A stretch of DNA of 7,450 bases from a virus. Positions 1-7,450 of the stretch are shown one piece after another. Numbering within the stretch: the stretch's first letter is position 1; the number at the start of each line of letters is the position of its first letter. The stretch covers positions 1 through 7,450 of the IMG/VR virus record IMGVR_UViG_3300044997_000678, one strand, 5' to 3'. A model generated the notes under the pieces. It was not told the origin of the DNA and made no database searches. It worked only from the letters and a program-made list of their open reading frames with translations. The position numbers and the translations under genes are program-made.

Positions 1-127
1 TAAAGATTAATTGGCACTTGAACGTCAGGAGGACAAGAAGCAGACCAAGAAATTGCATTTTCTTGTAATTCAGGAATAGGTAATTCTGTTACTTCATTGG
101 TCTGATTGTCAGGTAATTCAGAGTCGT
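1..127. repeat. Terminal direct repeat, copy 1 (identical to 7324..7450)
   Basis: I compared the two copies base by base. taaagattaattggcacttgaacgtcagg...tcagagtcgt occurs at both window ends, with position 1 corresponding to 7324. Confidence 0.98.
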
Positions 128-1136
128 TTTTAGTCCAATCGAGCCATTCTTTAAAAGAAGTCCATGATGAAGATATTGCTTGGGTTGCAGTATTCCACCA
201 GTTTTCAACAGTTGTAGGAAATTTTATAGCAGACTGTGCAGCTTCACAGACAATTGGTGCCCAACCACAGAAAACTGGGAAAGTTATTTTTATATTTGTT
301 CCAGCTTCGGGAGCTGCTGGGTCTTTTGGAGTTGCTTCTGCTGCTGCTTGTTCTGAAGTTTGGGTTTTTGAGTTTGTATTTAGTTGTGTTTCTACATCGG
401 ATTGAGTTGCTGAATCATTTGCAAGCATATCTTGAGCTGCTGTAGTTGTTGCTACTTGTGCACCAACTTTTTTATCTTGATCAGTATGTGTGTCAGCATT
501 GGATATGACTTGAGCTGAAACTATATCTAGGGGTAAAGTTTTCTTTTCTTCTGTTGGTCCGTCTTTGATTGCAGTGCGATAAAATTCATATGAAGGAATG
601 TTTGTACATTGTTGTGTGCCCTGATAGCAAGAATAAGTAATTTTTGCTGAACATATTACAGAAACACCACCATTTTTTACTGTTACAGTTTTATTTTCTA
701 TCTTGTTATAAGTCAAGTTTGAAAAATATGCATTACATACAGCATCGGGACCATTGTAGTCAATTCCCTTGAAGTTATAGACGTATCGTTGATTTGGGTC
801 TATCGGCTTTGTATAAACAATTTGATTATTGGCAGGGTCAAGTACCCAATCAACAGAGCCGAGTAGCTGTTCAACTGCTACAGAAAGAGCATATCCAGCA
901 GCACCACGAGCTAGTACTTTTGAGACTGCACTGACACTCGGAGTTATTTTAGCAGTTGATGTTTTAACTACACTTGCACCGTTGATTATTGATGTTTTTG
1001 TAGCAGTGATAGCTGTAGAAGCACCTTGGGCAATTTGTTGTGTGATAGTCCAACCACCAAGGGAAAAATTTGCAAAAGCATAAGTTGGAGCTAGAACGAT
1101 GTTGAAACAAAGAAGAAGTACAAGTATTTTTTTCAT
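1..1136 (-). CDS. pIII-like minor coat / adsorption protein, N-terminal part (gene wraps the circular junction; remainder at 7323..7197)
   Basis: Hand translation from ATG 1136..1134 stays open down to position 1 and continues in frame through 7323..7197 to TGA, giving 1263 nt or 420 aa. It starts MKKILVLLLCFNIVLAPTYA/FANFSLGGW, a signal peptide. Cys-containing N-terminal domains follow (DAVCNAYF, SVICSAK, YSCYQGTQQCTN). A T/A/Q/E/P-rich linker comes next (TTTAAQDMLANDSATQSDVETQ...EQAAAEATPKDPAAPEAG). The gene sits between the coat terminator and the pVI-like/zot genes, like Ff gIII or CTXphi orfU. It is absent from the ORF track because it has no stop at the window start. Confidence 0.7.
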   Translation of the reverse strand, partial: MKKILVLLLCFNIVLAPTYAFANFSLGGWTITQQIAQGASTAITATKTSIINGASVVKTSTAKITPSVSAVSKVLARGAAGYALSVAVEQLLGSVDWVLDPANNQIVYTKPIDPNQRYVYNFKGIDYNGPDAVCNAYFSNLTYNKIENKTVTVKNGGVSVICSAKITYSCYQGTQQCTNIPSYEFYRTAIKDGPTEEKKTLPLDIVSAQVISNADTHTDQDKKVGAQVATTTAAQDMLANDSATQSDVETQLNTNSKTQTSEQAAAEATPKDPAAPEAGTNIKITFPVFCGWAPIVCEAAQSAIKFPTTVENWWNTATQAISSSWTSFKEWLDWTKNDSELPDNQTNEVTELPIPELQENAISWSASCPPDVQVPINL

Positions 1137-1207
1137 TTGACCATCACCGTTACTGCTATGATTAATATGATAGGAATCAACCAATTAAAAATAGATACCG
1201 TATCCAT
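1133..1207 (-). CDS. 24-aa hydrophobic micro-ORF (MDTVSIFNWLIPIILIIAVTVMVK), possible pVII/pIX-like minor virion or assembly peptide
   Basis: ATG is at 1207..1205, preceded by GGTGG 4 nt upstream. It has a single TM-like core. Its TGA (1135..1133) overlaps the pIII-like ATG (1136..1134) as ATGA. It is too short for the ORF track. Confidence 0.35.
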   Translation of the reverse strand: MDTVSIFNWLIPIILIIAVTVMVK

Positions 1208-1226
1208 AAAGCCACCATTTAATTAG

Positions 1227-1246
1227 AAAGGGGGCGAACCCCCTTT
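1227..1246 (-). terminator. Rho-independent terminator after the major coat gene
   Basis: The sequence aaaggggg-cgaa-cccccttt forms an 8-bp stem (5 G:C pairs) with a 4-nt loop. It starts 4 nt after the coat stop codon. The minus-strand RNA reads AAAGGGGGUUCGCCCCCUUUCUAAUU. Ff phages have a terminator in the same place, after gVIII. Confidence 0.75.
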
Positions 1247-1249
1247 TTA

Positions 1250-1504
1250 TTACTTTGCAGCAGCTCGTAGATTGCGCCAAATAGCGATGCCAGCAGTGAA
1301 GCCAAGCCAAGCAACACCGATTGTTGCAGCAGCAGTAACAGCAAGACCCAAGTTTGTAAGAATGTCAGTTACATCATAAGCTGCCATTGTCAAAGAACCT
1401 GTAGTCGCAGCAGTTAAAGCAACAGCACCACGATTAAGGTATTTTTGTAAGCGATTAGGTTTTTTTTGAACTAAAATTAAACCCATTTTTTGTTGTTCAG
1501 TCAT
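1250..1504 (-). CDS. Major coat protein precursor (pVIII-like), 84 aa
   Basis: ATG at 1504 has a GGAGA 9 nt upstream. The leader ends ...TGSLTMA. The predicted mature ~43 aa is AYDVTDILTNLGLAVTAAATIGVAWLGFTAGIAIWRNLRAAAK. It has an acidic N-terminus, a hydrophobic core and a basic C-terminus, the classic inovirus coat layout. A strong terminator follows. Confidence 0.85.
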   Translation of the reverse strand: MTEQQKMGLILVQKKPNRLQKYLNRGAVALTAATTGSLTMAAYDVTDILTNLGLAVTAAATIGVAWLGFTAGIAIWRNLRAAAK

Positions 1505-1694
1505 GAGATTTTTCTCCAATTTGACATAGTTTATTAAAGACAGCAGCAACAACAATTACAAGTGAAGCAGCCATCCCGATTTGTGCAGCCTGAGCCGCAG
1601 TTATTCCGAACAAGTCATTTATAGTGAGTTGTTCTACCCATTCAACGCATGTCTGAATACCGTCATTTTCAGCTAGAGTTTTGCAGACATACAT
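1497..1694 (-). CDS. 65-aa small protein with hydrophobic C-terminal half, candidate minor coat/assembly protein
   Basis: ATG at 1694 has AAGGA about 9 nt upstream. The hydrophobic stretch is ITAAQAAQIGMAASLVIVVAAVF. It lies between the ssDNA-binding and coat genes, like Ff gVII/gIX. It overlaps the coat ATG by 8 nt. Confidence 0.5.
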   Translation of the reverse strand: MYVCKTLAENDGIQTCVEWVEQLTINDLFGITAAQAAQIGMAASLVIVVAAVFNKLCQIGEKSHD

Positions 1695-1789
1695 TGAAAG
1701 AATCCTTTTAACCGTTGCAACGTGAAATATGGATTTTTATAAATCCTTGATGAAAATAGGAGCCACATTTAGAGCAAATAACTTGGTTA

Positions 1790-2095
1790 TCACCCTGCAT
1801 TCGGTTTTGTTGCTTGTTTGTGTGGAATTAAATCAAGAATGATCAAAGTTGAGTTTTTACCGTTTGATACTTGCTCTAAAACAACGTCAGCATTCAAAGG
1901 AAATTCAAGGTCTTTAATCTTTTTGAAGTTCTCACTTGTACCCCATTTGATTTGTTCACCGACTTCACCAGCGAAGTTGTCGCCCTCTTGTAGATCGGCT
2001 TTATAGAAAACAGTAGTGCTATCATATGGCTTTCCTTGATAGTCACCTTTTGAGCTTTTTGCGCCTAGAACTGTCATGGTTGTCTTAAATTGCAT
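1790..2095 (-). CDS. ssDNA-binding protein (gV / RstB-like), 101 aa
   Basis: It lies immediately downstream of rep and overlaps it by 11 nt. GAGGG sits 8 nt upstream of the ATG. Size is about 100 aa. The N-terminal ...KGDYQGKPYDSTTVFY... resembles the G-K-P-Y region of vibrio-type inovirus ssDNA-binding proteins. That resemblance is by eye, not searched. Confidence 0.65.
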   Translation of the reverse strand: MQFKTTMTVLGAKSSKGDYQGKPYDSTTVFYKADLQEGDNFAGEVGEQIKWGTSENFKKIKDLEFPLNADVVLEQVSNGKNSTLIILDLIPHKQATKPNAG

Positions 2096-3596
2096 GAGTT
2101 AAACCCTCATAAAAGATTTCGTTTGATGTAAGAAAAGGAACACCCTCAAATAAAGGTGTTTCAGTGATAGTTTTGTTTTGAATCGGTTGACCAATGCGCA
2201 AAGCTTGCATAACAGCAGCATGAGAAAAGTTAAGACGCTTTGGTACAACGTCCTTATCTGATGAAATCAGATTGAGAAGATCAGAATCACTAATAAATTT
2301 TCTGAACTGGCGTATGTATTTGCCGAATTGAACTTTGACGATATCAAGAGCTTTATCTACATTGATATTTGCTTGTTTTTCAATGAGTTCACATTTTTCA
2401 GGTGCTACGAAATCATTTAACTGATTCATAAGCATCTCTAATGCAGGATAAGCACCTTTGAAATATGTACTTGGAGATAAAAGAATATCTAGAGGTAAAT
2501 AACGATCGGTGGATTTAAGCTCCAATTCAGCACGTGTCCAAAGGCTTAAGGAATCTCCCTCTTTTTTGCCACGCTCATAAAAACGAAGAAATTTAGAGCT
2601 TGAACGGTTGCCAATAGTAAGAGTTCTGCCCTTTCCATTGATACGCTTCCAGTCACCAAGTTTATTGATTTCTGAATTACGACCACCGCACCAAAATAAA
2701 TCCTGAGAATCCCATTGATCAGCTAGATCAACAGAAACCCATTCTGATTCAAAGTCATCAAAAGCGATATCAACACGATTTAATTTTGGTGAAATAGCTT
2801 GTACTTTTAAGAACTTATATAACTGCTCATTCCAACCCTTGCGAGCTAGAGCGCAACCAGTACCATTGATTTGTACAGTAATTCGCTTGTTATTGTGACC
2901 GTAAAGAATTAAGCCTAAATTATCTTGTAAATCATAACCATACTTGTTGAAATGCATACCCTTTTCACGTTTTTGGGATATACCGAAGCCAAAGATTTCA
3001 AAAAGGATTTGATCAAGATAAGTTTCAATAGATTCGCCAACAGCATCATCTACATGTTCAGGCTTTAAACCAGCGCATTTATCACCTAGAGTTGTTTGGC
3101 AAAAACTAAATGTAACCCAATCAAGACCACATGGTGAACCATCGACTGGAGCAGCCTTAAGGACTGGAACAACACCTTGAGGAGTTGAAATTAAATTGTA
3201 ATTATCAAGATTTCTTGGGAAAGCATAAGATTCAAATGTATTGAACGTATATTCATGAGAATAGCTACTATCCGCTACCCCTATATTATAAAAAGGGGTG
3301 CTTTCTGCCGTATTTAACACGGTATTGGCTACTTTTTGAGCAAATATTTCTTGAATAGAAGAATCTGATTTAGAAGAAGAAGATTTAGAGTTGACCAATT
3401 GATCTACAGCATCGAGTTTATTTTTTACAATGCCATTAAGTAGATTTTTTAGAGTTTCACCATCTGACAAGGAAACGTCACCAAAAGCAGTATGTGCAAA
3501 AATGTCATCGTGTATGGCTTTTTGTTGTTCGAATATTTCAGAAAGAGATAGATTTGAGTTATCAAGATTTTGGATTTGAGCTAATAGATTTTTCAT
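2085..3596 (-). CDS. Rolling-circle replication initiator, Rep_trans (pfam02486, RstA/gII-like) with ~155-aa N-terminal extension, 503 aa
   Basis: Rep_trans-like motifs are present: GLDWVTFSF, ITVQINGTGCALA, NRVDIAFDD and GRTLTIGNRSSSKFLRFYERGKKEG. It is the largest ORF and precedes the ssDNA-binding gene. Confidence 0.88.
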   Translation of the reverse strand: MKNLLAQIQNLDNSNLSLSEIFEQQKAIHDDIFAHTAFGDVSLSDGETLKNLLNGIVKNKLDAVDQLVNSKSSSSKSDSSIQEIFAQKVANTVLNTAESTPFYNIGVADSSYSHEYTFNTFESYAFPRNLDNYNLISTPQGVVPVLKAAPVDGSPCGLDWVTFSFCQTTLGDKCAGLKPEHVDDAVGESIETYLDQILFEIFGFGISQKREKGMHFNKYGYDLQDNLGLILYGHNNKRITVQINGTGCALARKGWNEQLYKFLKVQAISPKLNRVDIAFDDFESEWVSVDLADQWDSQDLFWCGGRNSEINKLGDWKRINGKGRTLTIGNRSSSKFLRFYERGKKEGDSLSLWTRAELELKSTDRYLPLDILLSPSTYFKGAYPALEMLMNQLNDFVAPEKCELIEKQANINVDKALDIVKVQFGKYIRQFRKFISDSDLLNLISSDKDVVPKRLNFSHAAVMQALRIGQPIQNKTITETPLFEGVPFLTSNEIFYEGLTHAI

Positions 3597-3715
3597 TTGA
3601 TAGACCCCATAAATTCATCTGACCAAAACCATTCGCAAGAAGAAAAAGAAATCCAATAAGAATCTGTAAATAAAAAAGAAGTTTTTGGTGCATAAGGCTT
3701 ATGTTTAAAAATCAT
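3593..3715 (-). CDS. 40-aa micro-ORF upstream of rep (MIFKHKPYAPKTSFLFTDSYWISFSSCEWFWSDEFMGSIK)
   Basis: ATG at 3715 has GGAG 9 nt upstream. It starts 2 nt after the stop of the upstream ORF (TAATTATG). Its TGA overlaps the rep ATG as ATGA. It fills the otherwise empty 121-bp gap. It is not in the ORF track. Confidence 0.45.
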   Translation of the reverse strand: MIFKHKPYAPKTSFLFTDSYWISFSSCEWFWSDEFMGSIK

Positions 3716-3717
3716 AA

Positions 3718-3972
3718 TTATTCTCCAAAAGCTTCTATTAATTCAGAATTAGATTGCTTATAGAGTTCTGCATAAGCATCAATTTTTGAAGAATCATAAG
3801 ACCAGTCGTGAGCCACTAAAGCGAGATGAAATAAACACTTTTCAGCAGAGATAGCAGGTGTTAAAGATTCGAGACACGGTTGGGCGTGATCTGAGACAAT
3901 TTTAGCTACTTGATCGAAAGCAGCTTGAACAAATTCTGCCCTATTTCTGAAATTCAAATGGTCATTGTTCAT
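3718..3972 (-). CDS. Hypothetical acidic helical protein, first gene of the rep operon (84 aa from ATG 3972; 89 aa if GTG 3987)
   Basis: This is track ORF 3718..3987. The listed start is GTG, and an in-frame ATG lies at 3972. Neither has a clear SD. The predicted promoter puts the TSS near 3998. I recognise no family. Confidence 0.5.
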   Translation of the reverse strand: MNNDHLNFRNRAEFVQAAFDQVAKIVSDHAQPCLESLTPAISAEKCLFHLALVAHDWSYDSSKIDAYAELYKQSNSELIEAFGE

Positions 3973-3981
3973 TTTATGATT

Positions 3982-4087
3982 TATCACAAATGATATTTGA
4001 GTGTTTTATAACATGTAATTTGTGATATCGCAACATATCATAAAATATAAATCAGATATGATGTGTCACTTTTCAGGAGAAACCGAA
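3982..4087. promoter_or_regulatory. Divergent promoter/operator region between the rep operon (-) and the RHH regulator (+)
   Basis: The minus-strand promoter has -35 TTGCGA (4033..4028), a 17-nt spacer and -10 TATAAA (4010..4005). A 10-bp inverted repeat, tatcacaaat (3982..3991) / atttgtgata (4018..4027), brackets the -10. Further gatatg/catatc repeats occur at 4035..4070. A plus-strand promoter (TTGTGA 4020..4025 with TAAAAT 4041..4046, 15-nt spacer) is weaker. Confidence 0.45.
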
Positions 4088-4282
4088 ATGGCAGTTACAG
4101 TTAGACTTAGAGACGATGAAGAAGAAATGGTGAAAGAAGCAACTTTAGAAATGATGTTTGAGACGAAAATTAGAATTAAAGAGTCTGATGTTATTCATAC
4201 ACTTATAAGAAAATATATAAGAGATATTAAAACAGAAGATGTTATGAAATACAGAGCTGAAATTCTTAAAAAAGACGATTAA
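4088..4282 (+). CDS. Ribbon-helix-helix (CopG/Arc-like) DNA-binding protein, 64 aa; candidate phage repressor/regulator
   Basis: AGGAGA (4075..4080) lies 7 nt before ATG 4088. MAVTVRLRDDEEEMVKEATLE... shows an N-terminal beta-strand (VTVRL) followed by two helices, as RHH proteins do. It is divergent from the rep operon, the position rstR holds in CTXphi. Confidence 0.68.
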   Translation: MAVTVRLRDDEEEMVKEATLEMMFETKIRIKESDVIHTLIRKYIRDIKTEDVMKYRAEILKKDD

Positions 4283-4316
4283 TTATTTTTGTTGATCCTG
4301 ATTATTAGGAAAAAGT

Positions 4317-4736
4317 ATGAGTCATATCATTTTTTTGATCTTTGGAATAGCCATTGGCTATTTCATTGGAATAAACAAGAAAAAAGAAGAACATAAAGTA
4401 AAAAGAAAAAGAGTAATAAGTTATTCAGAAAGGCAGTTAGCTAAAGTAAGTTACGAAACAGACTCAGACAGAATAAGACAATTAAATTTGCTGTCACCGA
4501 ACGAAAGTAAATTTATGAGACTACTTCAACACGAATTCGAAAAACAAAAAGTAATAGTAAAAGACAGAAGATTTTATATTGCAGATCAGGACAACTACCC
4601 TATTGCAATTTTTGAGTACAGAGATGGAACAAAGCAAATAAAATCAAAAGATATTGAAGATGGTTTGCCTATTTTTATATATAAATCAATAATATCAAAA
4701 GAAGAAATAAGAAAAGACAAAGAAGAACTAGCATGA
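4317..4736 (+). CDS. Membrane-anchored 139-aa protein; C-terminal domain weakly resembles DUF2726 / PD-(D/E)xK-like folds
   Basis: AGGAAA lies upstream of the ATG. The N-terminal TM segment is HIIFLIFGIAIGYFIGI, followed by a Lys-rich linker. The motif LLSPNESKFMRLLQHEF...RRFYIADQDNYPIAIFEYRDG resembles L-[ST]-x-x-E-x-x-F...D...E-x-[KR]. That resemblance is by eye only. The stop codon overlaps dif-like site A. Confidence 0.55.
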   Translation: MSHIIFLIFGIAIGYFIGINKKKEEHKVKRKRVISYSERQLAKVSYETDSDRIRQLNLLSPNESKFMRLLQHEFEKQKVIVKDRRFYIADQDNYPIAIFEYRDGTKQIKSKDIEDGLPIFIYKSIISKEEIRKDKEELA

Positions 4737-4837
4737 TTTCGCATAATGCAGATTGATGTTAAATAACGCTGTTTTGCAATGGTAGATATTATTGCAAAAC
4801 AGCTATGTAACATAATCGCGCACACATTATGCGAAAT
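4736..4837. other. attP candidate: two inverted dif-like XerC/XerD sites flanking a 13-bp perfect palindrome, foldable into a forked hairpin (CTXphi type)
   Basis: Site A (4736..4764) is atttcgcataa-tgcagat-tgatgttaaat. Site B (4805..4837, reverse complement) is atttcgcataa-tgtgtgcgcga-ttatgttacat. E. coli dif is GGTGCGCATAA-TGTATA-TTATGTTAAAT. The XerC-type arms are identical to each other, and each XerD-type arm matches 10/11. The central regions are 7 and 11 nt. The inner stem is gctgttttgcaat (4768..4780) / attgcaaaacagc (4791..4803). Confidence 0.75.
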
Positions 4838-4856
4838 TTAAGTATAAAAAATATCA

Positions 4857-5220
4857 TGGATAAATTCACCTGGTATGAGACCTGGTGCCAGGATAAAAGA
4901 CCTGGATAAATTCACCTGGTGTGAGACCTGGTGCCAGGATAAAAGACCTGGATAAATTCACCTGGTGTGAGACATGGTGCCAGGATAAAAGACCTGGATA
5001 AATTCACCTGGTGTGAGACCTGGTGCCAGGATAAAAGACCTGGATAAATTCACCTGGTGTGAGACCTGGTGCCAGGATAAAAGACCTGGATAAATTCACC
5101 TGGTGTGAGACATGGTGCCAAGATAAAAGACCTGGATAAATTCACCTGGTGTGAGACCTGGTGCCAGGATAAAAGACCTGGATAAATTCACCTGGTGTGA
5201 GACATGGTGCCAGGATAAAA
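4857..5220. repeat. Tandem array of 8 x 46-bp direct repeats (7 full units plus a 42-bp unit), non-coding
   Basis: The unit is tggataaattcacctggtgtgagacctggtgccaggataaaagacc. Units start at 4857, 4903, 4949, 4995, 5041, 5087, 5133 and 5179. There are only 5 substitutions: 4875, 4974, 5112, 5121 and 5204. Each unit holds the palindrome CACCTGGTG, the inverted repeat CCTGG-TG-CCAGG, and two CCWGGATAAA sub-repeats. Confidence 0.97.
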
Positions 5221-5260
5221 ACAGTAATCAGAGGGTCGAGATTTCGAATATTTATAGTTC

Positions 5261-5312
5261 GCTTGCTAGACAGCAAGCTCTAGCAGGCATACGCCTGTTA
5301 GTTCTAGGAGCT
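5261..5312. other. Stem-loop cluster, candidate ssDNA origin / packaging-signal structures
   Basis: SL1 is gcttgct-agac-agcaagc (5261..5278). SL2 is agctc-tag-caggc-atac-gcctg-ttagtt-cta-g-gagct (5276..5312). They lie in the only large non-coding region, where inoviruses place the origin and packaging hairpins. Confidence 0.35.
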
Positions 5313-5334
5313 GTAAAGTGATTCTTTTATAACG

Positions 5335-5361
5335 ATAAGTTTTTTTTGTTAAAAAACTTAT
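5335..5361 (-). terminator. AT-only 11-bp hairpin just downstream of the last operon gene, weak terminator candidate
   Basis: The sequence ataagtttttt-ttgtt-aaaaaacttat starts 6 nt after the stop of the 117-aa ORF (5367). The stem has almost no G:C pairs and no clean U-tract follows on the minus strand, so it is weak. Confidence 0.3.
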
Positions 5362-5366
5362 AACAC

Positions 5367-5720
5367 TCAGAGAGTGTTAAACGAGAGTTTTGATAAATAA
5401 AAAGCTTGAAGAAGTATGAATAAAATAAGGATAAAAATAGCAATAATATAAGAATAATTAACTTTGTTTTTATGTTTAATACGAGAAATAAATATTTGTT
5501 TTTGTTTAATTATTTCTTCATTAGTCACGTATTTATTTTTAAATCTGTATAGATAGCCTGAATCAGTTTTAATTCTCGAGGGTCTAGAGATTTCAGAAAA
5601 TAGAATTGATTTGATTGTTGATAATATTCCAGAGCAGATCGCACCAACAACAACGCCAGTTGTAAAAATAATAAAGATCATTTCTTGCAATGCAGTTAAA
5701 TCAGATACAGAAAGACTCAT
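5367..5720 (-). CDS. 117-aa two-TM membrane protein translationally coupled to zot; function unknown
   Basis: ATG 5720..5718 overlaps the zot TGA 5719..5717 as ATGA. GAGG lies 7 nt upstream. Hydrophobic segments are IFIIFTTGVVVGAICSGILSTI (N-terminal) and YIIAIFILILFILLQAFYL (C-terminal), with a basic loop between them. Confidence 0.6.
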   Translation of the reverse strand: MSLSVSDLTALQEMIFIIFTTGVVVGAICSGILSTIKSILFSEISRPSRIKTDSGYLYRFKNKYVTNEEIIKQKQIFISRIKHKNKVNYSYIIAIFILILFILLQAFYLSKLSFNTL

Positions 5721-6853
5721 AGTGAAACCTCAGAAGATTGTGATTGTTGGTTATTTTGTGGAATTGTACTTGGAGCAGGATTTTGGCGTTGTAATGTTTG
5801 AGCAGAGTAATCAAAAGGTCTATAGCCATTCATGTATTTTTTACAATCAGATTGAGAGATTGATGACATGTAATTGCCCTGCTGGTCTATACCAACGAGT
5901 TGACCGTTAGAAAGAGTCATGCAGCCTGAAAGGCGAGGATAATCATTTACTTGAATAGTGAAATTTTCAGGTAATTGGGTTTCGTATGGTTTATTTGGAT
6001 TATAGGTTATTGATGTTTTTTCTACAGATGAACCGCTACTGGAGAGATTGTTGAACCACTCAACACATTCAGGCTTTTCAACATTAACGCCCTTGCGACA
6101 CTCTATGTCTAAGTTTGTTAGTTTGTCAGTAGTAACACTAGCAGCTTGTGAACCTACAACTTGATTAGGTTGCTTGTTACCGCTTGCAATATCGGCATTT
6201 TCTTTGATTTTAGATGCAGATAAAAAAGGGTTATCAGAGCCAAAAACCATATATGAGATAAGTAAAATAACAGCGAGTAGAAAACCACCTAACTTGAAGT
6301 AGATCGGAGGTATTTTAAGTTTATGTGTATCAATTGTTGTGGATTTATATTGATCAAAGATTTTTGAATCAGGTTTAAATTTTTCGTGTGATTCAGCTTT
6401 GTTTTTGCCACCCGTTGAGTCAGGTTGCATGACAGCATAACGCCATAAAAAAACATCAGCATAGCCACGCCCATAAGCACGGTGTAAATGGTAATGCATA
6501 CCAACAAGGCTTAAGACATGATTGTGAATGAAGTTTGGAGATTGAGTAACGAGGATAATATCGTGACCAGTATGACGATGTACTTCTAATTCTTTTACTC
6601 GTGCATCTGATGATAATTTTTCACGTCCTTTATATTGAAAAAAATCGAACTGCTGAGCTTCATCATAAATGATGACAGAGCCGTCAGGGGTTTGTCTCCA
6701 GTCGTTGTTATCAGGTAGCTTTTGAACGCCATCATAATCAAATTCGTCAATATTTGTGTAAACAGGTCTACCCTCTTTTAAATATTGAATTGCGAGAGAA
6801 GCTGTTTTAGCTGTTTTGAACGAACCAGGCTTACCTGTGATAAGAGTTAACAT
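5717..6853 (-). CDS. zot: Zot-like / pI morphogenesis ATPase, 378 aa
   Basis: The N-terminal P-loop is MLTLITGKPGSFKT; V. cholerae Zot has GAPGSYKT. The Walker B-like motif is VIIYDEAQ. A central TM segment is GGFLLAVILLISYMVFG, followed by a C-terminal periplasmic domain. AGGAG lies 8 nt before the ATG. The gene follows the pVI-like gene. Confidence 0.92.
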   Translation of the reverse strand: MLTLITGKPGSFKTAKTASLAIQYLKEGRPVYTNIDEFDYDGVQKLPDNNDWRQTPDGSVIIYDEAQQFDFFQYKGREKLSSDARVKELEVHRHTGHDIILVTQSPNFIHNHVLSLVGMHYHLHRAYGRGYADVFLWRYAVMQPDSTGGKNKAESHEKFKPDSKIFDQYKSTTIDTHKLKIPPIYFKLGGFLLAVILLISYMVFGSDNPFLSASKIKENADIASGNKQPNQVVGSQAASVTTDKLTNLDIECRKGVNVEKPECVEWFNNLSSSGSSVEKTSITYNPNKPYETQLPENFTIQVNDYPRLSGCMTLSNGQLVGIDQQGNYMSSISQSDCKKYMNGYRPFDYSAQTLQRQNPAPSTIPQNNQQSQSSEVSL

Positions 6854-6867
6854 GTTTTTTTCTCCTA

Positions 6868-6934
6868 CGTGACACGCCCCACGCTACGCACACCGACAGG
6901 CGCGCGGTGCGTGTAAGCGCGTCACGCTTTTTTT
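6868..6934 (+). terminator. GC-rich (~70%) imperfect ~60-nt hairpin followed by T7; intrinsic-terminator-like on the plus strand, antisense to the structural operon
   Basis: The outer stem is cgtgac (6869..6874) / gtcacg (6921..6926). Inner pairings are acgcac/gtgcgt or caccg/cggtg. ttttttt follows at 6928..6934. By hand count 42/60 bases are G+C, in an AT-rich genome. It overlaps the pVI-like stop codon and abuts the zot SD. Confidence 0.5.
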
Positions 6935-7200
6935 ATAGAGACATTGGCAGCAAGTATTGTTGCTCTAGCTACAAGAGCGCCTATGATGATTGAAATTGCA
7001 TGGTCTAAGCCTGAAATGCTTAGCAAGCCTAAATAAGTTGGGTCTATTGAGCTTGAAGCTGATATAGCTTTATTTATGTATGTTGAAAGTATTGCGTTTA
7101 TTACTGCACCCGATACAAGAGTTACACCAGCACCAAGCAGAACTTTTTTTGCAAAGTTAGATAAAAGCCAACTTGTAAGAGCAAATAGCATTTGTTTCAT
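6922..7200 (-). CDS. pVI / Ace-like hydrophobic minor coat protein, 92 aa
   Basis: It is strongly hydrophobic, with multiple TM-like segments. ATG 7200..7198 overlaps the pIII-like TGA 7199..7197 as ATGA. Its position between the pIII-like gene and zot matches Ff gVI and CTXphi ace. Confidence 0.65.
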   Translation of the reverse strand: MKQMLFALTSWLLSNFAKKVLLGAGVTLVSGAVINAILSTYINKAISASSSIDPTYLGLLSISGLDHAISIIIGALVARATILAANVSIKKA

Positions 7201-7450
7201 GTTCTAAGCCCCAAAACGATGAAAGCAGCACCGATATAAGCAGAAGCGATAATTGCAGGCTTAATGATGTTTAAAAGCTGGCACCAAGGAGACCAAGAAA
7301 AAGTTAGTGTAGATGATTGACCATAAAGATTAATTGGCACTTGAACGTCAGGAGGACAAGAAGCAGACCAAGAAATTGCATTTTCTTGTAATTCAGGAAT
7401 AGGTAATTCTGTTACTTCATTGGTCTGATTGTCAGGTAATTCAGAGTCGT
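7197..7450 (-). CDS. pIII-like adsorption protein, C-terminal part (7324..7450 duplicates 1..127)
   Basis: It is in frame with 1..1136 across the junction. The sequence reads ...SCPPDVQVPINLYGQSSTLTFSWSPWCQLLNIIKPAIIASAYIGAAFIVLGLRT, then TGA at 7199..7197. It has a C-terminal membrane anchor, as pIII does. Confidence 0.7.
   Translation of the reverse strand, partial: DSELPDNQTNEVTELPIPELQENAISWSASCPPDVQVPINLYGQSSTLTFSWSPWCQLLNIIKPAIIASAYIGAAFIVLGLRT
7324..7450. repeat. Terminal direct repeat, copy 2 (identical to 1..127)
   Basis: Same comparison as copy 1. Exactly 127 bp matches a maximal assembler k-mer overlap on a circular contig; that link is inference. Confidence 0.98.

Follow-up and report, generated by a model that had tools for sequence, protein, structure and literature searches.

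Organization of the locus

The DNA analyzed here (the window) is a stretch of 7,450 nt, positions 1 to 7,450 of IMG/VR virus record IMGVR_UViG_3300044997_000678. Because its two ends overlap by 127 nt, we take the genome to be 7,323 bp long. It belongs to a circular Acinetobacter inovirus with a CTX-type attP. The features that matter for this analysis are listed below in window coordinates.

3975 to 4042, no strand assigned: five WATCAYW heptads, including a contiguous set of three, within the divergent promoter of the RHH-like protein
4088 to 4282, plus strand: 64-aa RHH-like protein (MAVTVRLR... followed by three helices; fold predicted)
4317 to 4736, plus strand: 139-aa membrane-anchored protein, whose stop codon overlaps the XerC arm of attP site 1
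4736 to 4837, minus strand: CTX-type attP, two inverted dif-like sites (shared arm ATTTCGCATAATG) flanking an inner 13-bp hairpin
4838 to 4856, no strand assigned: left junction TTAAGTATAAAAAATATCA, kept in the related contigs L064 and L059
4857 to 5220, no strand assigned: tandem array, 7.9 copies of TGGATAAATTCACCTGGTGTGAGACCTGGTGCCAGGATAAAAGACC, with 27 CCWGG and 14 CCWGGATAA
5221 to 5240, no strand assigned: right junction ACAGTAATCAGAGGGTCGAG, which includes the backbone landmark GTAATCAGAGGG
5241 to 5300, no strand assigned: conserved hairpin region (GCTTGCTAGA/TCTAGCAGGC, GCAGGCATACGCCTG)
5335 to 5379, minus strand: terminator-like hairpins closing the Zot/117-aa operon
6825 to 6829, no strand assigned: sole CCWGG beyond the array, located in Zot at the K-P-G codons of its Walker A motif

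As single-stranded DNA, the attP folds into a forked hairpin (z = −7.0), and it is conserved in four related loci (L008, L053, L059, and L064). The array begins 19 nt from the XerC arm of attP site 2, and at the left junction, the first CCTGG has decayed to CATGG (4855-4859). On the other side lies the conserved hairpin region, a possible candidate for an origin or packaging element. The placement given in the initial annotation, between attP and hairpins, was therefore accurate, as the array is flanked by a genuine CTX-type attP and by hairpins.

The 139-aa protein is also encoded by relatives without the array. By eye, it had suggested a nuclease-type domain, which would have tied it to CCWGG, but its model (pLDDT 88) gave no fold match in the PDB, and we set this candidate aside.

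Anatomy of the array

Tandem Repeats Finder placed the array at 4857-5220 with a period of 46, 7.9 copies, 97% matches, 0 indels, and a score of 693. A unit-by-unit comparison yielded five substitutions: 4875 G>A; 4974, 5112, and 5204 C>A; and 5121 G>A. Both results agree with the initial annotation, which had described near-perfect 46-bp tandem repeats with five substitutions over the same interval and a recurrent C-to-A change in units 3, 6, and 8; we recovered that change at the same positions. Recounting also returned its 27 CCWGG pentamers, and we found in each unit the two CCWGGATAA(A) sub-repeats and the CCTGG-TG-CCAGG 5-2-5 inverted repeat that it had reported. Its perfect 9-bp palindrome needs rewording, as CACCTGGTG is a 4-1-4 interrupted palindrome with the reverse complement CACCAGGTG and is not strictly perfect. 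The units are near-identical copies, and the substitution positions indicate that one variant has spread block-wise through the array. Counting from the five substitution positions, there are 3 mismatches in 226 nt at a shift of 138 compared to 8 in 318 nt at a shift of 46, which lends weak support to a three-unit pattern but leaves the proposed higher-order array at that. Each unit also holds three ACCTGG direct repeats.

We agree that the array is non-coding, although the accompanying statement that it contains no open reading frame does not hold, as minus-strand frames of 31-44 aa are listed inside it. We still call the array non-coding because these frames are overlapping, frame-shifting artefacts of the repeat. 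Promoter and terminator scans predicted none inside the array, and a search against Rfam returned no match at E ≤ 1. The units stand head-to-tail without the unique spacers that a CRISPR array would have between its repeats. Inspection of the unit for sigma-54, CRP, NtrC, ArgR, IHF, and KOPS motifs found none that fit. DnaA boxes were likewise rejected on inspection, since TTATCCWGG agrees with TTATCCACA at no more than 6-7 of 9 positions, and the critical ones are among the mismatches.

Because a short read cannot span the array and all k=31 assemblies break inside it, we considered whether the true state is a single unit and the array an assembly artefact. We give this almost no credence. 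No 127-mer occurs twice in the array, where exact self-matches reach 107 nt at most, so its path is resolvable at k=127, anchored by the variant positions. An independent scaffold, L064, carries at least 6.5 tandem units. Moreover, contigs break exactly where the repeat predicts: L031, a Logan contig 100% identical to the window, ends exactly 30 nt left of the variant at 5204, and the related contigs L040, L053, and L064 likewise end within such units. Array composition varies between samples whose flanks are identical, and the copy number of 7.9 is best read as a minimum.

Distribution and versions of the cassette

The array is the amplified form of a non-coding, accessory cassette that always follows attP site 2. 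Tandem 46-bp units occur in the window and in three other contigs, which break in such units. L053 has a 46-like unit, and the cassette of L064 is built of 26-bp tandem units with a 52-bp higher-order repeat. A non-tandem cassette of ~230 bp is found in L059 to L062 and in pANC7912.4 (L084), a record annotated as a plasmid, where the cassette core is 84% identical and lies directly after that element's own attP. The cassette versions are homologous, and their position is the same from one lineage to the next: in the window, L064, and L059, attP site 2 is followed by the same left junction, YTMAGWATAAAAA(A)TATCN-TGGATAAAT. With flanks diverged by ~10-13% and units of differing length, the array must have persisted and been remodelled. 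What distinguishes the 26-bp unit from the 46-bp unit is a deletion between GACCTGG repeats.

Judging by how the versions differ, CCWGG is what the cassette keeps, since variation in L064, L053, and L059/L084 spares the pentamers. The variable positions of L064 fall outside CCWGG and GGATAAA, the spacer of L053 is altered (CCTGG-AA-CCAGG) with its pentamers intact, and the A/T exchange at the central base that sets L059 apart from L084 still reads as CCWGG. A small open reading frame in the conserved 140-bp core of the L059/L084 cassette was discarded, as neither its start nor its stop codon is conserved by eye.

The cassette is absent from L054, L056, L063, and L008, the shared parts of which are 86-98% identical. 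We regard it as accessory because such close relatives lack it, one of them with a Rep protein 98% identical to that of the window. At the position of the right junction, the array-less L054 has GCCAGGAACAAAAAAGCAGTAGTCAAAGGGTCGAG, which corresponds to the retained end of a unit. The cassette is also independent of any particular phage protein; the genomes that bear it differ in Rep family, and their RHH-like proteins are 34-43% identical. Among more distant loci encoding homologues of the 139-aa protein (L085-L089), no cassette was found.

Reading from the sequence, the cassettes of L053 and L059 are bounded by dif-like sites in direct orientation, the far one a canonical 11-6-11 site, and other cargo lies between the cassette and the GTAATCAGAGGG landmark. 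L063 resembles L053 minus two cassettes. The window cassette has a Xer site on the attP side only, and its other flank carries no more than a degenerate ATTTCGAATAT. In these respects, the cassette recalls the pdif (dif) modules and IMEX stacks of Acinetobacter: in L053 and L059 it is one of several dif-separated segments, and it is gained and lost as a block and common to unrelated backbones. It differs from them in that its sites are direct rather than inverted, it carries no gene, and the window has a Xer site on one flank only.

Searches beyond these relatives returned little. Scanning for the exact unit pattern, we obtained 0 matches among 185,579 species genomes and likewise 0 in collections of metagenomes and viruses, and so no sign that the unit is an intergenic repeat picked up from a host by chance. 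Neither the whole genome nor the array had a BLAST match in phage and plasmid records, and a left-junction pattern scan of viral contigs gave chance matches only, in unrelated AT-rich genomes. An attP-pattern scan returned L008 again and L058, which shares the attP alone. Literature searches on Acinetobacter filamentous phages and inovirus tandem repeats found the term only as "tandem prophage," and those on CCWGG with Acinetobacter found nothing relevant. The original remark that no such inovirus element had been described is thus in line with our searches, as neither sequences nor literature yielded a comparable element.

CCWGG is avoided outside the cassette

The window contains 28 CCWGG, 27 of them in the array, compared to 5.07 ± 2.26 (maximum 11) expected from dinucleotide shuffles. 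The remaining one lies in the Zot gene, in which relatives also have a CCWGG. Across 43 contigs totaling 300 kb with cassettes masked, CCWGG had an observed/expected ratio of 0.29 (73 vs. 252), the second lowest of 512 pentamers and level with GGWCC; for GGTACC, the ratio in related phage contigs was 0.06. Most relatives that we checked have 0-2 CCWGG per genome, and the cassette supplies 27 of 28 in the window, 5 of 6 in L059, 6 of 7 in L053, and 5 of 9 in L084. Because CCWGG is among the two most avoided pentamers in these phages, the cassette amounts to a CCWGG island. By contrast, all other pentamers of the unit occur at ordinary frequency, and host flanks in L032 are not depleted of CCWGG. 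In ~480 kb of related loci, CCWGGATAA outside cassettes appeared only as single chance matches.

AjnI (CCWGG) and Acc65I (GGTACC) are both Acinetobacter enzymes. The inner cytosine of CCWGG is the base methylated by Dcm/EcoRII-type enzymes, and the scorable differences that destroy CCWGG (only ~5 events) all strike this cytosine on one strand or the other. A CCWGG-rich decoy for host restriction or modification had been the third option of the initial annotation. It now gains real support from the avoidance of this pentamer across the phage group, although the decoy role itself stays putative.

Alternative explanations

The idea that had led initially, a cooperative platform, centromere, or silencer for the 64-aa RHH protein, now seems very doubtful. 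An RHH fold is plausible for this protein from its model (pLDDT 87), in which an extended N-terminal segment is followed by three helices; RHH proteins generally bind repeat arrays, and degenerate TCAC/GTGA half-sites can be read in the unit. As in parC/ParR of R1, the omega heptads of pSM19035, and ParG sites, tandem short repeats here share a small replicon with a small RHH-like protein. However, the protein has no significant fold or sequence match in the PDB and no RHH match in Pfam. Omega-like WATCAYW heptads, its likely operator, lie in its own promoter at 3975-4042 with 0 in 4857-5220; the array unit is 46 bp compared to 7-11 bp in the RHH-bound systems; and no unit k-mer of ≥10 nt occurs elsewhere in the genome. 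The TCAC/GTGA half-sites coincide with the variable positions of the L064 26-bp array. Pfam and PHROG scans of ten open reading frames gave no ParA/ParM-type NTPase as a partition partner, the only P-loop protein being Zot. Nor does the array track the RHH allele: the RHH-like proteins of cassette-bearing genomes are only 43% and 34% identical to that of the window, L053 (with the array) and L054 (without it) share one allele that is 43% identical to the window's, and the window allele has 107 homologue clusters in Acinetobacter assemblies while very few contigs were found to carry the cassette. The same annotation had also offered iterons for Rep, or an enhancer of replication, beside the plus-strand origin; this option is weakened and now a very improbable reading. 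On the viral strand, the array does lie directly downstream of the conserved GTAATCAGAGGG/hairpin region, in a layout resembling, by analogy, domain B of the Ff origin. Still, L008 has no array despite its near-identical Rep, nor does L054, whose rep region is ~90% identical in DNA; the pANC7912.4 cassette coexists with an unrelated Rep annotated as II/X family; and other cargo splits the cassette from the landmark in L053 and L059. Scarcer still is the case for a sponge RNA, in which read-through transcripts of the RHH and 139-aa genes with 16 GGAUAAA motifs would titrate a CsrA-like protein. The plus-strand motif C(A/U)GGAUA does recur, and the stretch from the 139-aa gene to the array lacks a predicted terminator. 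Against this highly improbable reading, no promoter, terminator, or Rfam match (at E ≤ 1) defines an RNA, the GG of each motif is paired in predicted folds, and half of the motifs are CUGGA.

Two explanations take their cue from the neighborhood of attP. The cassette could be a nucleoprotein scaffold steering the direction or topology of XerCD at attP or at stacked dif-like sites, much as cer and psi place a few hundred base pairs of non-coding DNA directly on the XerC-arm side of a XerCD site. The cassette always adjoins the XerC arm (in the same position in L059, L064, and L084), and both the direct dif-like sites bounding it in L053 and L059 and the resemblance of L063 to a cassette-less L053 would fit. 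However, Xer recombination as a mere insertion route explains this adjacency equally well. Integration of the CTX type proceeds through a folded single strand, for which accessory DNA is not known. Neither an ArgR nor an ArcA box, which beside PepA sites would mark a cer/psi-type sequence, could be seen on inspection, and phages with the same attP dispense with the cassette. We therefore consider a Xer accessory role improbable. An element acting in single-stranded DNA, such as an auxiliary complementary-strand origin or priming signal (cf. sso cassettes) or a modulator of attP folding, is unlikely as well, if a little easier to entertain. On the packaged strand, each unit forms a pair of small hairpins whose stems are CCWGG; folding exceeds that of shuffled sequence on either strand and to a similar degree (z = −6.3 and −7.5), and a CCWGG stem with an ATAA-containing loop can be read in the window, L059, and L084. 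The intergenic location beside attP and hairpins and the accessory, cassette-like distribution also fit the sso elements of rolling-circle plasmids and the Ff minus-strand origin, which are likewise non-coding, dispensable, exchangeable, intergenic, and structured as single strands. Yet the stems are only 5-7 bp, and no promoter-like hairpin emerged from the promoter/terminator scan. The L064 array has CCTGG in one orientation only, with no perfect hairpins conserved, and a fixed orientation would follow from site-specific insertion anyway. Such an element would also leave the use of an avoided word without explanation.

A proposed platform for a host CCWGG reader

Setting these alternatives aside, we tentatively favor an array that serves as a multivalent double-stranded platform for a host CCWGG-reading protein and that has been enlarged by slippage. 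The cassette would then be a mobile non-coding accessory element that some Acinetobacter inoviruses carry beside attP site 2, next to its XerC arm, and its key part would be the word CCWGG, mostly as CCWGGATAA(A). It would act in duplex DNA, whether replicative form or prophage, and serve a host-encoded reader as platform or sink, the leading candidate for this reader being the methyltransferase or endonuclease of a CCWGG restriction-modification system. Pressure from such systems could have purged CCWGG from the remainder of these genomes. Slippage between the internal GACCTGG direct repeats would have created and resized the 26-bp and 46-bp units, lifting the site count from about 5 to at least 27. 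We infer that a protein binds the array and that it is host-encoded and of restriction-modification type. Some features sit less easily with this platform. We know of no mechanism by which clustered cleavable sites help a phage, and under ordinary restriction kinetics more sites mean less escape. A pure CCWGG reader does not account for the conserved ATAA(A) tail of the motif. Moreover, purifying selection on every CCWGG site is not evidently strong because four of the five array substitutions destroy one.

These substitutions speak for the array as a neutral or selfish minisatellite, which is a real possibility, though we hold it with less conviction than the platform. The ancestral non-tandem cassette may then have some function, and tandem amplification would be incidental, arising from slipped-strand mispairing or unequal exchange while the genome replicates as a rolling circle, and tolerated since filament length is flexible. 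Because the unit contains internal direct repeats, slippage is likely without any selection, and the GACCTGG-repeat deletion separating the 26-bp and 46-bp units points the same way. The near-identical units with one variant spread block-wise, the differing array composition among samples with identical flanks, and the close relatives that manage without the array are all consistent with neutrality. However, at least five contigs, each from a different sample or record, contain arrays whose flanks have diverged and whose units have been remodelled, and CCWGG and GGATAAA are invariant where other positions vary. Repetition of a strongly counter-selected word should also carry a cost, so neutrality seems unlikely on this point.

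A more specific proposal is that the cassette is a DNA-level counter-measure to, or sensor of, CCWGG restriction-modification enzymes, a "methylation or decoy island." Dozens of otherwise purged CCWGG might sequester or recruit the host endonuclease or methyltransferase and thereby change the outcome of infection or lysogeny, either as duplex DNA or as viral-strand CCWGG-stem hairpins with a mismatched centre. We consider this unlikely in so specific a form, on a par with the single-stranded element. With the nucleic-acid decoys of other phages (RNA anti-CRISPRs and solitary repeat units), it shares the concept alone, many copies of a defence recognition element; those decoys are RNAs mimicking CRISPR repeats, whereas the element here is DNA. 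To our knowledge, no DNA decoy for a restriction-modification enzyme has been described. A related element near an inovirus attP is known from CTXphi, in which the TTTTGAT heptads upstream of ctxAB are likewise a tandem repeat of variable copy number within cargo and bind host ToxR. Those heptads sit in a promoter, while both genes neighboring the present array point their 3′ ends at it.

Inovirus cargo beside attP is usually thought of as genes, such as toxins and toxin-antitoxin systems. Here, by contrast, the cargo contains no gene: it is a cassette that travels among unrelated phage backbones by way of Xer sites, that amplification has reshaped time and again, and whose building block is a word that hardly any other exceeds in how strongly these phages avoid it. 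Should a host protein read the cassette, it would represent a new type of non-coding phage-host interface, and if it does act as a decoy island, a non-coding, Xer-mobilised anti-defence cassette. Even if neutral, the array would be a useful marker of recombination at phage Xer sites. It also serves as an assembly warning, since every k=31 assembly breaks within it.

The phage genome and its attP region

The first 127 nt of the window are repeated at its end, so that it represents an entire inovirus genome, circular and 7,323 bp long, with the following genes.

Predicted genes of the inovirus genome
2085-3596, minus strand: Rep_trans replication protein
5717-6853, minus strand: Zot
minus strand: 89-aa gene
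minus strand: 101-aa protein at the ssDNA-binding gene position
minus strand: coat protein
minus strand: DUF2523 (pVI-like) protein
minus strand: 117-aa membrane protein
4088-4282, plus strand: 64-aa ribbon-helix-helix (RHH)-like protein
4317-4736, plus strand: 139-aa membrane-anchored protein

Relatives of Rep with 64-80% identity occur in the chromosomes of A. corruptisaponis, A. gerneri, A. bereziniae, and A. rongchengensis, with a 52% match in A. johnsonii, and we therefore assign the host genus to Acinetobacter. The 139-aa protein combines an N-terminal membrane helix with a conserved domain and has >200 homologue clusters, the named ones nearly all from Acinetobacter. Its structural model is confident (pLDDT 88), yet a PDB fold search returned no match. 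Its gene ends in a stop codon that shares bases with the XerC arm of attP site 1. Judged by its sequence, 4736-4837 is a CTX-phi type attP, in which two inverted dif-like sites with the common arm ATTTCGCATAATG flank an inner 13-bp hairpin, and as ssDNA the region is predicted to form a forked hairpin (z = -7.0). Elsewhere in this 36% GC genome, the gap between the pVI-like and Zot genes contains a GC-rich 62-nt hairpin (6859-6920, z = -4.2). Similar GC-rich palindromic stretches were seen by eye at differing positions in four relatives (L008, L053, L059, and L084), and the hairpin may be a packaging signal or other mobile structured element.

Anatomy and assembly of the array

The array at 4857-5220 has a period of 46, 7.9 copies, 97% matches, and no indels (Tandem Repeats Finder), and its unit can be written as CCTGGATAAATTCA / CCTGGTGTGAGA / CCTGGTG / CCAGGATAAAAGA. 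The initial annotation had counted five substitutions and 27 CCWGG words here, and both counts were exact. The substitutions are at 4875, at 4974, 5112, and 5204 (identical C>A changes), and at 5121; the array accounts for 27 of the 28 CCWGG in the window, for which shuffles predict 5.1 ± 2.3. The remaining one (6825) belongs to the codons for K-P-G within Zot's Walker A motif. The array's description as non-coding also held, as ORFs crossing it were only short, frame-shifting artefacts, and no promoter, terminator, or Rfam family was found within it.

No 127-mer is repeated in the array, and the terminal overlap of the window is also 127 nt. The assembly path is therefore consistent, and eight copies are best taken as a minimum. 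L031, a 100% identical contig from an independent k=31 assembly, ends exactly 30 nt left of variant 5204, where a repeat predicts a contig break. This also implies that in its sample the variant is limited to the last unit, so that array composition varies between samples.

The array as the amplified form of a mobile cassette

Related loci were gathered from viral contigs and species genomes via Rep, Zot, and the 139-aa protein. Among these, no comparable non-coding array was found except in L040 (IMGVR_UViG_646206269_000001, 92% identical), which ends within a terminal unit bearing the same CATGG variant as the window. Of its 7,473 nt, 4,264 were examined, and that part stops within the terminal repeat unit, perhaps because the scaffold of that isolate genome has a gap at the array. 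Exact-pattern scans and BLAST revealed no further occurrence of the unit.

More cassettes came from contigs encoding close homologues of the two array-flanking proteins. L053 (~90% identical) ends within a 46-bp-like unit with CCTGG-AA-CCAGG. In L064, attP and the 19-nt junction seen in the window lead directly into an array whose 26-bp unit, TGGATAAATTNACCTGGTGTRAGACC, is present at least 6.5 times, with a higher-order repeat of 52 bp. Nucleotides 1-26 of the window's 46-bp unit are identical to it, the two units being related by a deletion between direct repeats of GACCTGG. Four contigs that are 94% identical to the window over the RHH/139-aa/attP region (L059-L062) have a ~230-bp non-tandem cassette in this position, behind the same junction, with five CCWGG, four of them as CCWGGATAA. 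A copy of its core, 84% identical, immediately follows attP in pANC7912.4 (L084, NZ_CP156799.1; 6,373 bp), annotated as a non-mobilizable Acinetobacter plasmid. Given its Zot, DUF2523, TspB-like protein, II/X Rep, and CTX-type attP, this is evidently an inovirus replicative form. Its Rep is unrelated to that of the window (annotated as II/X family), its RHH-like protein is merely 34% identical, and no 139-aa homologue is annotated.

The cassette was absent from the close relatives L054, L056, L063, and L008, the last with a 98% identical Rep; in L054, only GCCAGGAACAAAAAAGC remains where the sequence meets the conserved backbone landmark GTAATCAGAGGG. In L053 and L059, it is one among several segments with direct-orientation dif-like sites between them, and L063 resembles L053 minus two segments. 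From these variants and the cassette-less close relatives, we conclude that the array is a mobile accessory cassette in amplified form and no core element of the origin or packaging type.

All versions lie in one orientation behind attP site 2 and contain the word CCWGG, most often extended to CCWGGATAA(A). Changes in L064 are confined to positions other than CCWGG and GGATAAA, L053 has an altered 2-nt spacer with intact pentamers, and L059 and L084 have A and T exchanged at the central position of one site, which leaves CCWGG intact. Elsewhere in ~480 kb of related loci, CCWGGATAA gave isolated single matches only.

The region from attP site 2 to GTAATCAGAGGG is modular (L053 8005-8307; L059 3780-4300; L063 tail), with direct-orientation dif-like sites (...TTATGCGAAATCTCAG) between non-coding cassettes and small ORFs, and entire segments gained or missing among close relatives. 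At the array's position, a 21-bp palindromic unit (TGCAATATTAAAATATTGCAT) occurs three times in L054 (6836-6895) beside small cargo ORFs, for which it may serve as an operator.

CCWGG avoidance outside the cassette

Across 43 non-redundant related contigs (L001-L059, L084, and the window; 300 kb pooled, cassettes masked), CCWGG occurred 73 times vs. 252 expected under a maximal-order Markov model. This ratio of 0.29 is the second lowest among 512 pentamers. GGWCC stood level at 0.29 and GGTACC at 0.06, and the remaining pentamers of the unit had ordinary ratios. Most relatives checked hold 0-2 CCWGG per genome, and outside cassettes the word recurs in the Zot gene. Host DNA flanking the L032 prophage is not depleted (11 in 4 kb). 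The cassette holds 27 of 28 CCWGG in the window, 5 of 6 in L059, 6 of 7 in L053, and 5 of 9 in L084, and is thus a CCWGG island within CCWGG-poor genomes. Such strong avoidance of palindromic restriction-type words is the classic signature of restriction pressure, and AjnI (CCWGG) and Acc65I (GGTACC) are Acinetobacter enzymes. The earlier suggestion of a restriction-modification decoy is strengthened by this avoidance across relatives and concentration in the cassette.

Possible roles of the array

The initial annotation had favored a binding platform, centromere, or silencer for the 64-aa protein. An extended N-terminal segment (MAVTVRLR) followed by three helices makes the modeled protein compatible with an RHH fold, with no significant match in Pfam, PDB sequence, or fold searches. 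Five WATCAYW heptads occupy 3975-4042, in the divergent promoter that separates the 89-aa and RHH-like genes; three of them are exactly contiguous, on alternating strands, and the cluster is likely the protein's operator, of apparent omega type. The arrangement resembles that of the omega repressor of pSM19035, and the N-terminal strand TVRLR resembles omega's TVRVR. The array contains none of these heptads, and none of its k-mers of ≥10 nt was found in the rest of the genome. The unit's degenerate TCAC/GTGA half-sites are the variable positions in L064, the RHH allele does not follow cassette presence, and no partition NTPase was found among ten ORFs screened. Heptads that cluster in the protein's own promoter and are absent from the array, variable half-sites, an untracked allele, and the missing NTPase together disfavor an RHH or centromere model. 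Iterons or a replication enhancer are unlikely because near-identical Reps lack the array and the cassette coexists with an unrelated Rep.

Genomes with the cassette have different Rep families and RHH alleles, and array-less relatives encode the 139-aa protein as well. No phage-encoded DNA-binding protein tracks the cassette, so any reader would most simply be host-encoded, and as CCWGG is the sole feature separating the cassette from the rest of the genome, the reader should recognize CCWGG. The reading we favor, though only tentatively, is that the cassette would act as a multivalent double-stranded-DNA platform or sink for such a host protein, most plausibly of restriction-modification type, with site number adjusted by slippage. 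This reading has serious weak points: any benefit to the phage is putative, more cleavable sites should reduce restriction escape, and the ATAA tail is not accounted for. A further weak point is that, of the five substitutions found in the array of the window, four abolish CCWGG.

The main rival, a neutral product of slippage, seems rather unlikely, as arrays persist, remodelled, in several diverged lineages and an avoided word implies a cost. A role as ssDNA, to which two small predicted hairpins per unit (z = -6.3 and -7.5) would point, is improbable given that L064 does not keep them. We assign a slightly lower probability still to an Xer accessory role, whose fitting geometry is equally accounted for by insertion via Xer recombination. 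The literature searched contained no description of such an element. The array only partly resembles RHH-bound repeat arrays, cer/psi accessory sequences, pdif modules, sso cassettes, and ctxAB heptads, and could be assigned with confidence to none of these classes. We would place it as an unusual variant with Xer-site cargo cassettes or protein-binding repeat arrays; the cassette content is unusual and open to testing.

In all scorable differences that destroy CCWGG, the altered base pair includes the inner cytosine of either strand.

Inner-cytosine changes at CCWGG sites
Window 4974, 5112, 5204
Window 5121
Junction site (window 4855): CCTGG in L059, CTTGG in L064, CATGG in the window
CCTAGG in L059 vs. 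CCCAGG in L084

Dcm/EcoRII-type enzymes methylate the inner cytosine. By our own estimate (~5 events, two of five positions per site), the chance probability of this pattern is ~0.01-0.03, so it is no more than suggestive of a possible 5-methylcytosine hotspot signature.
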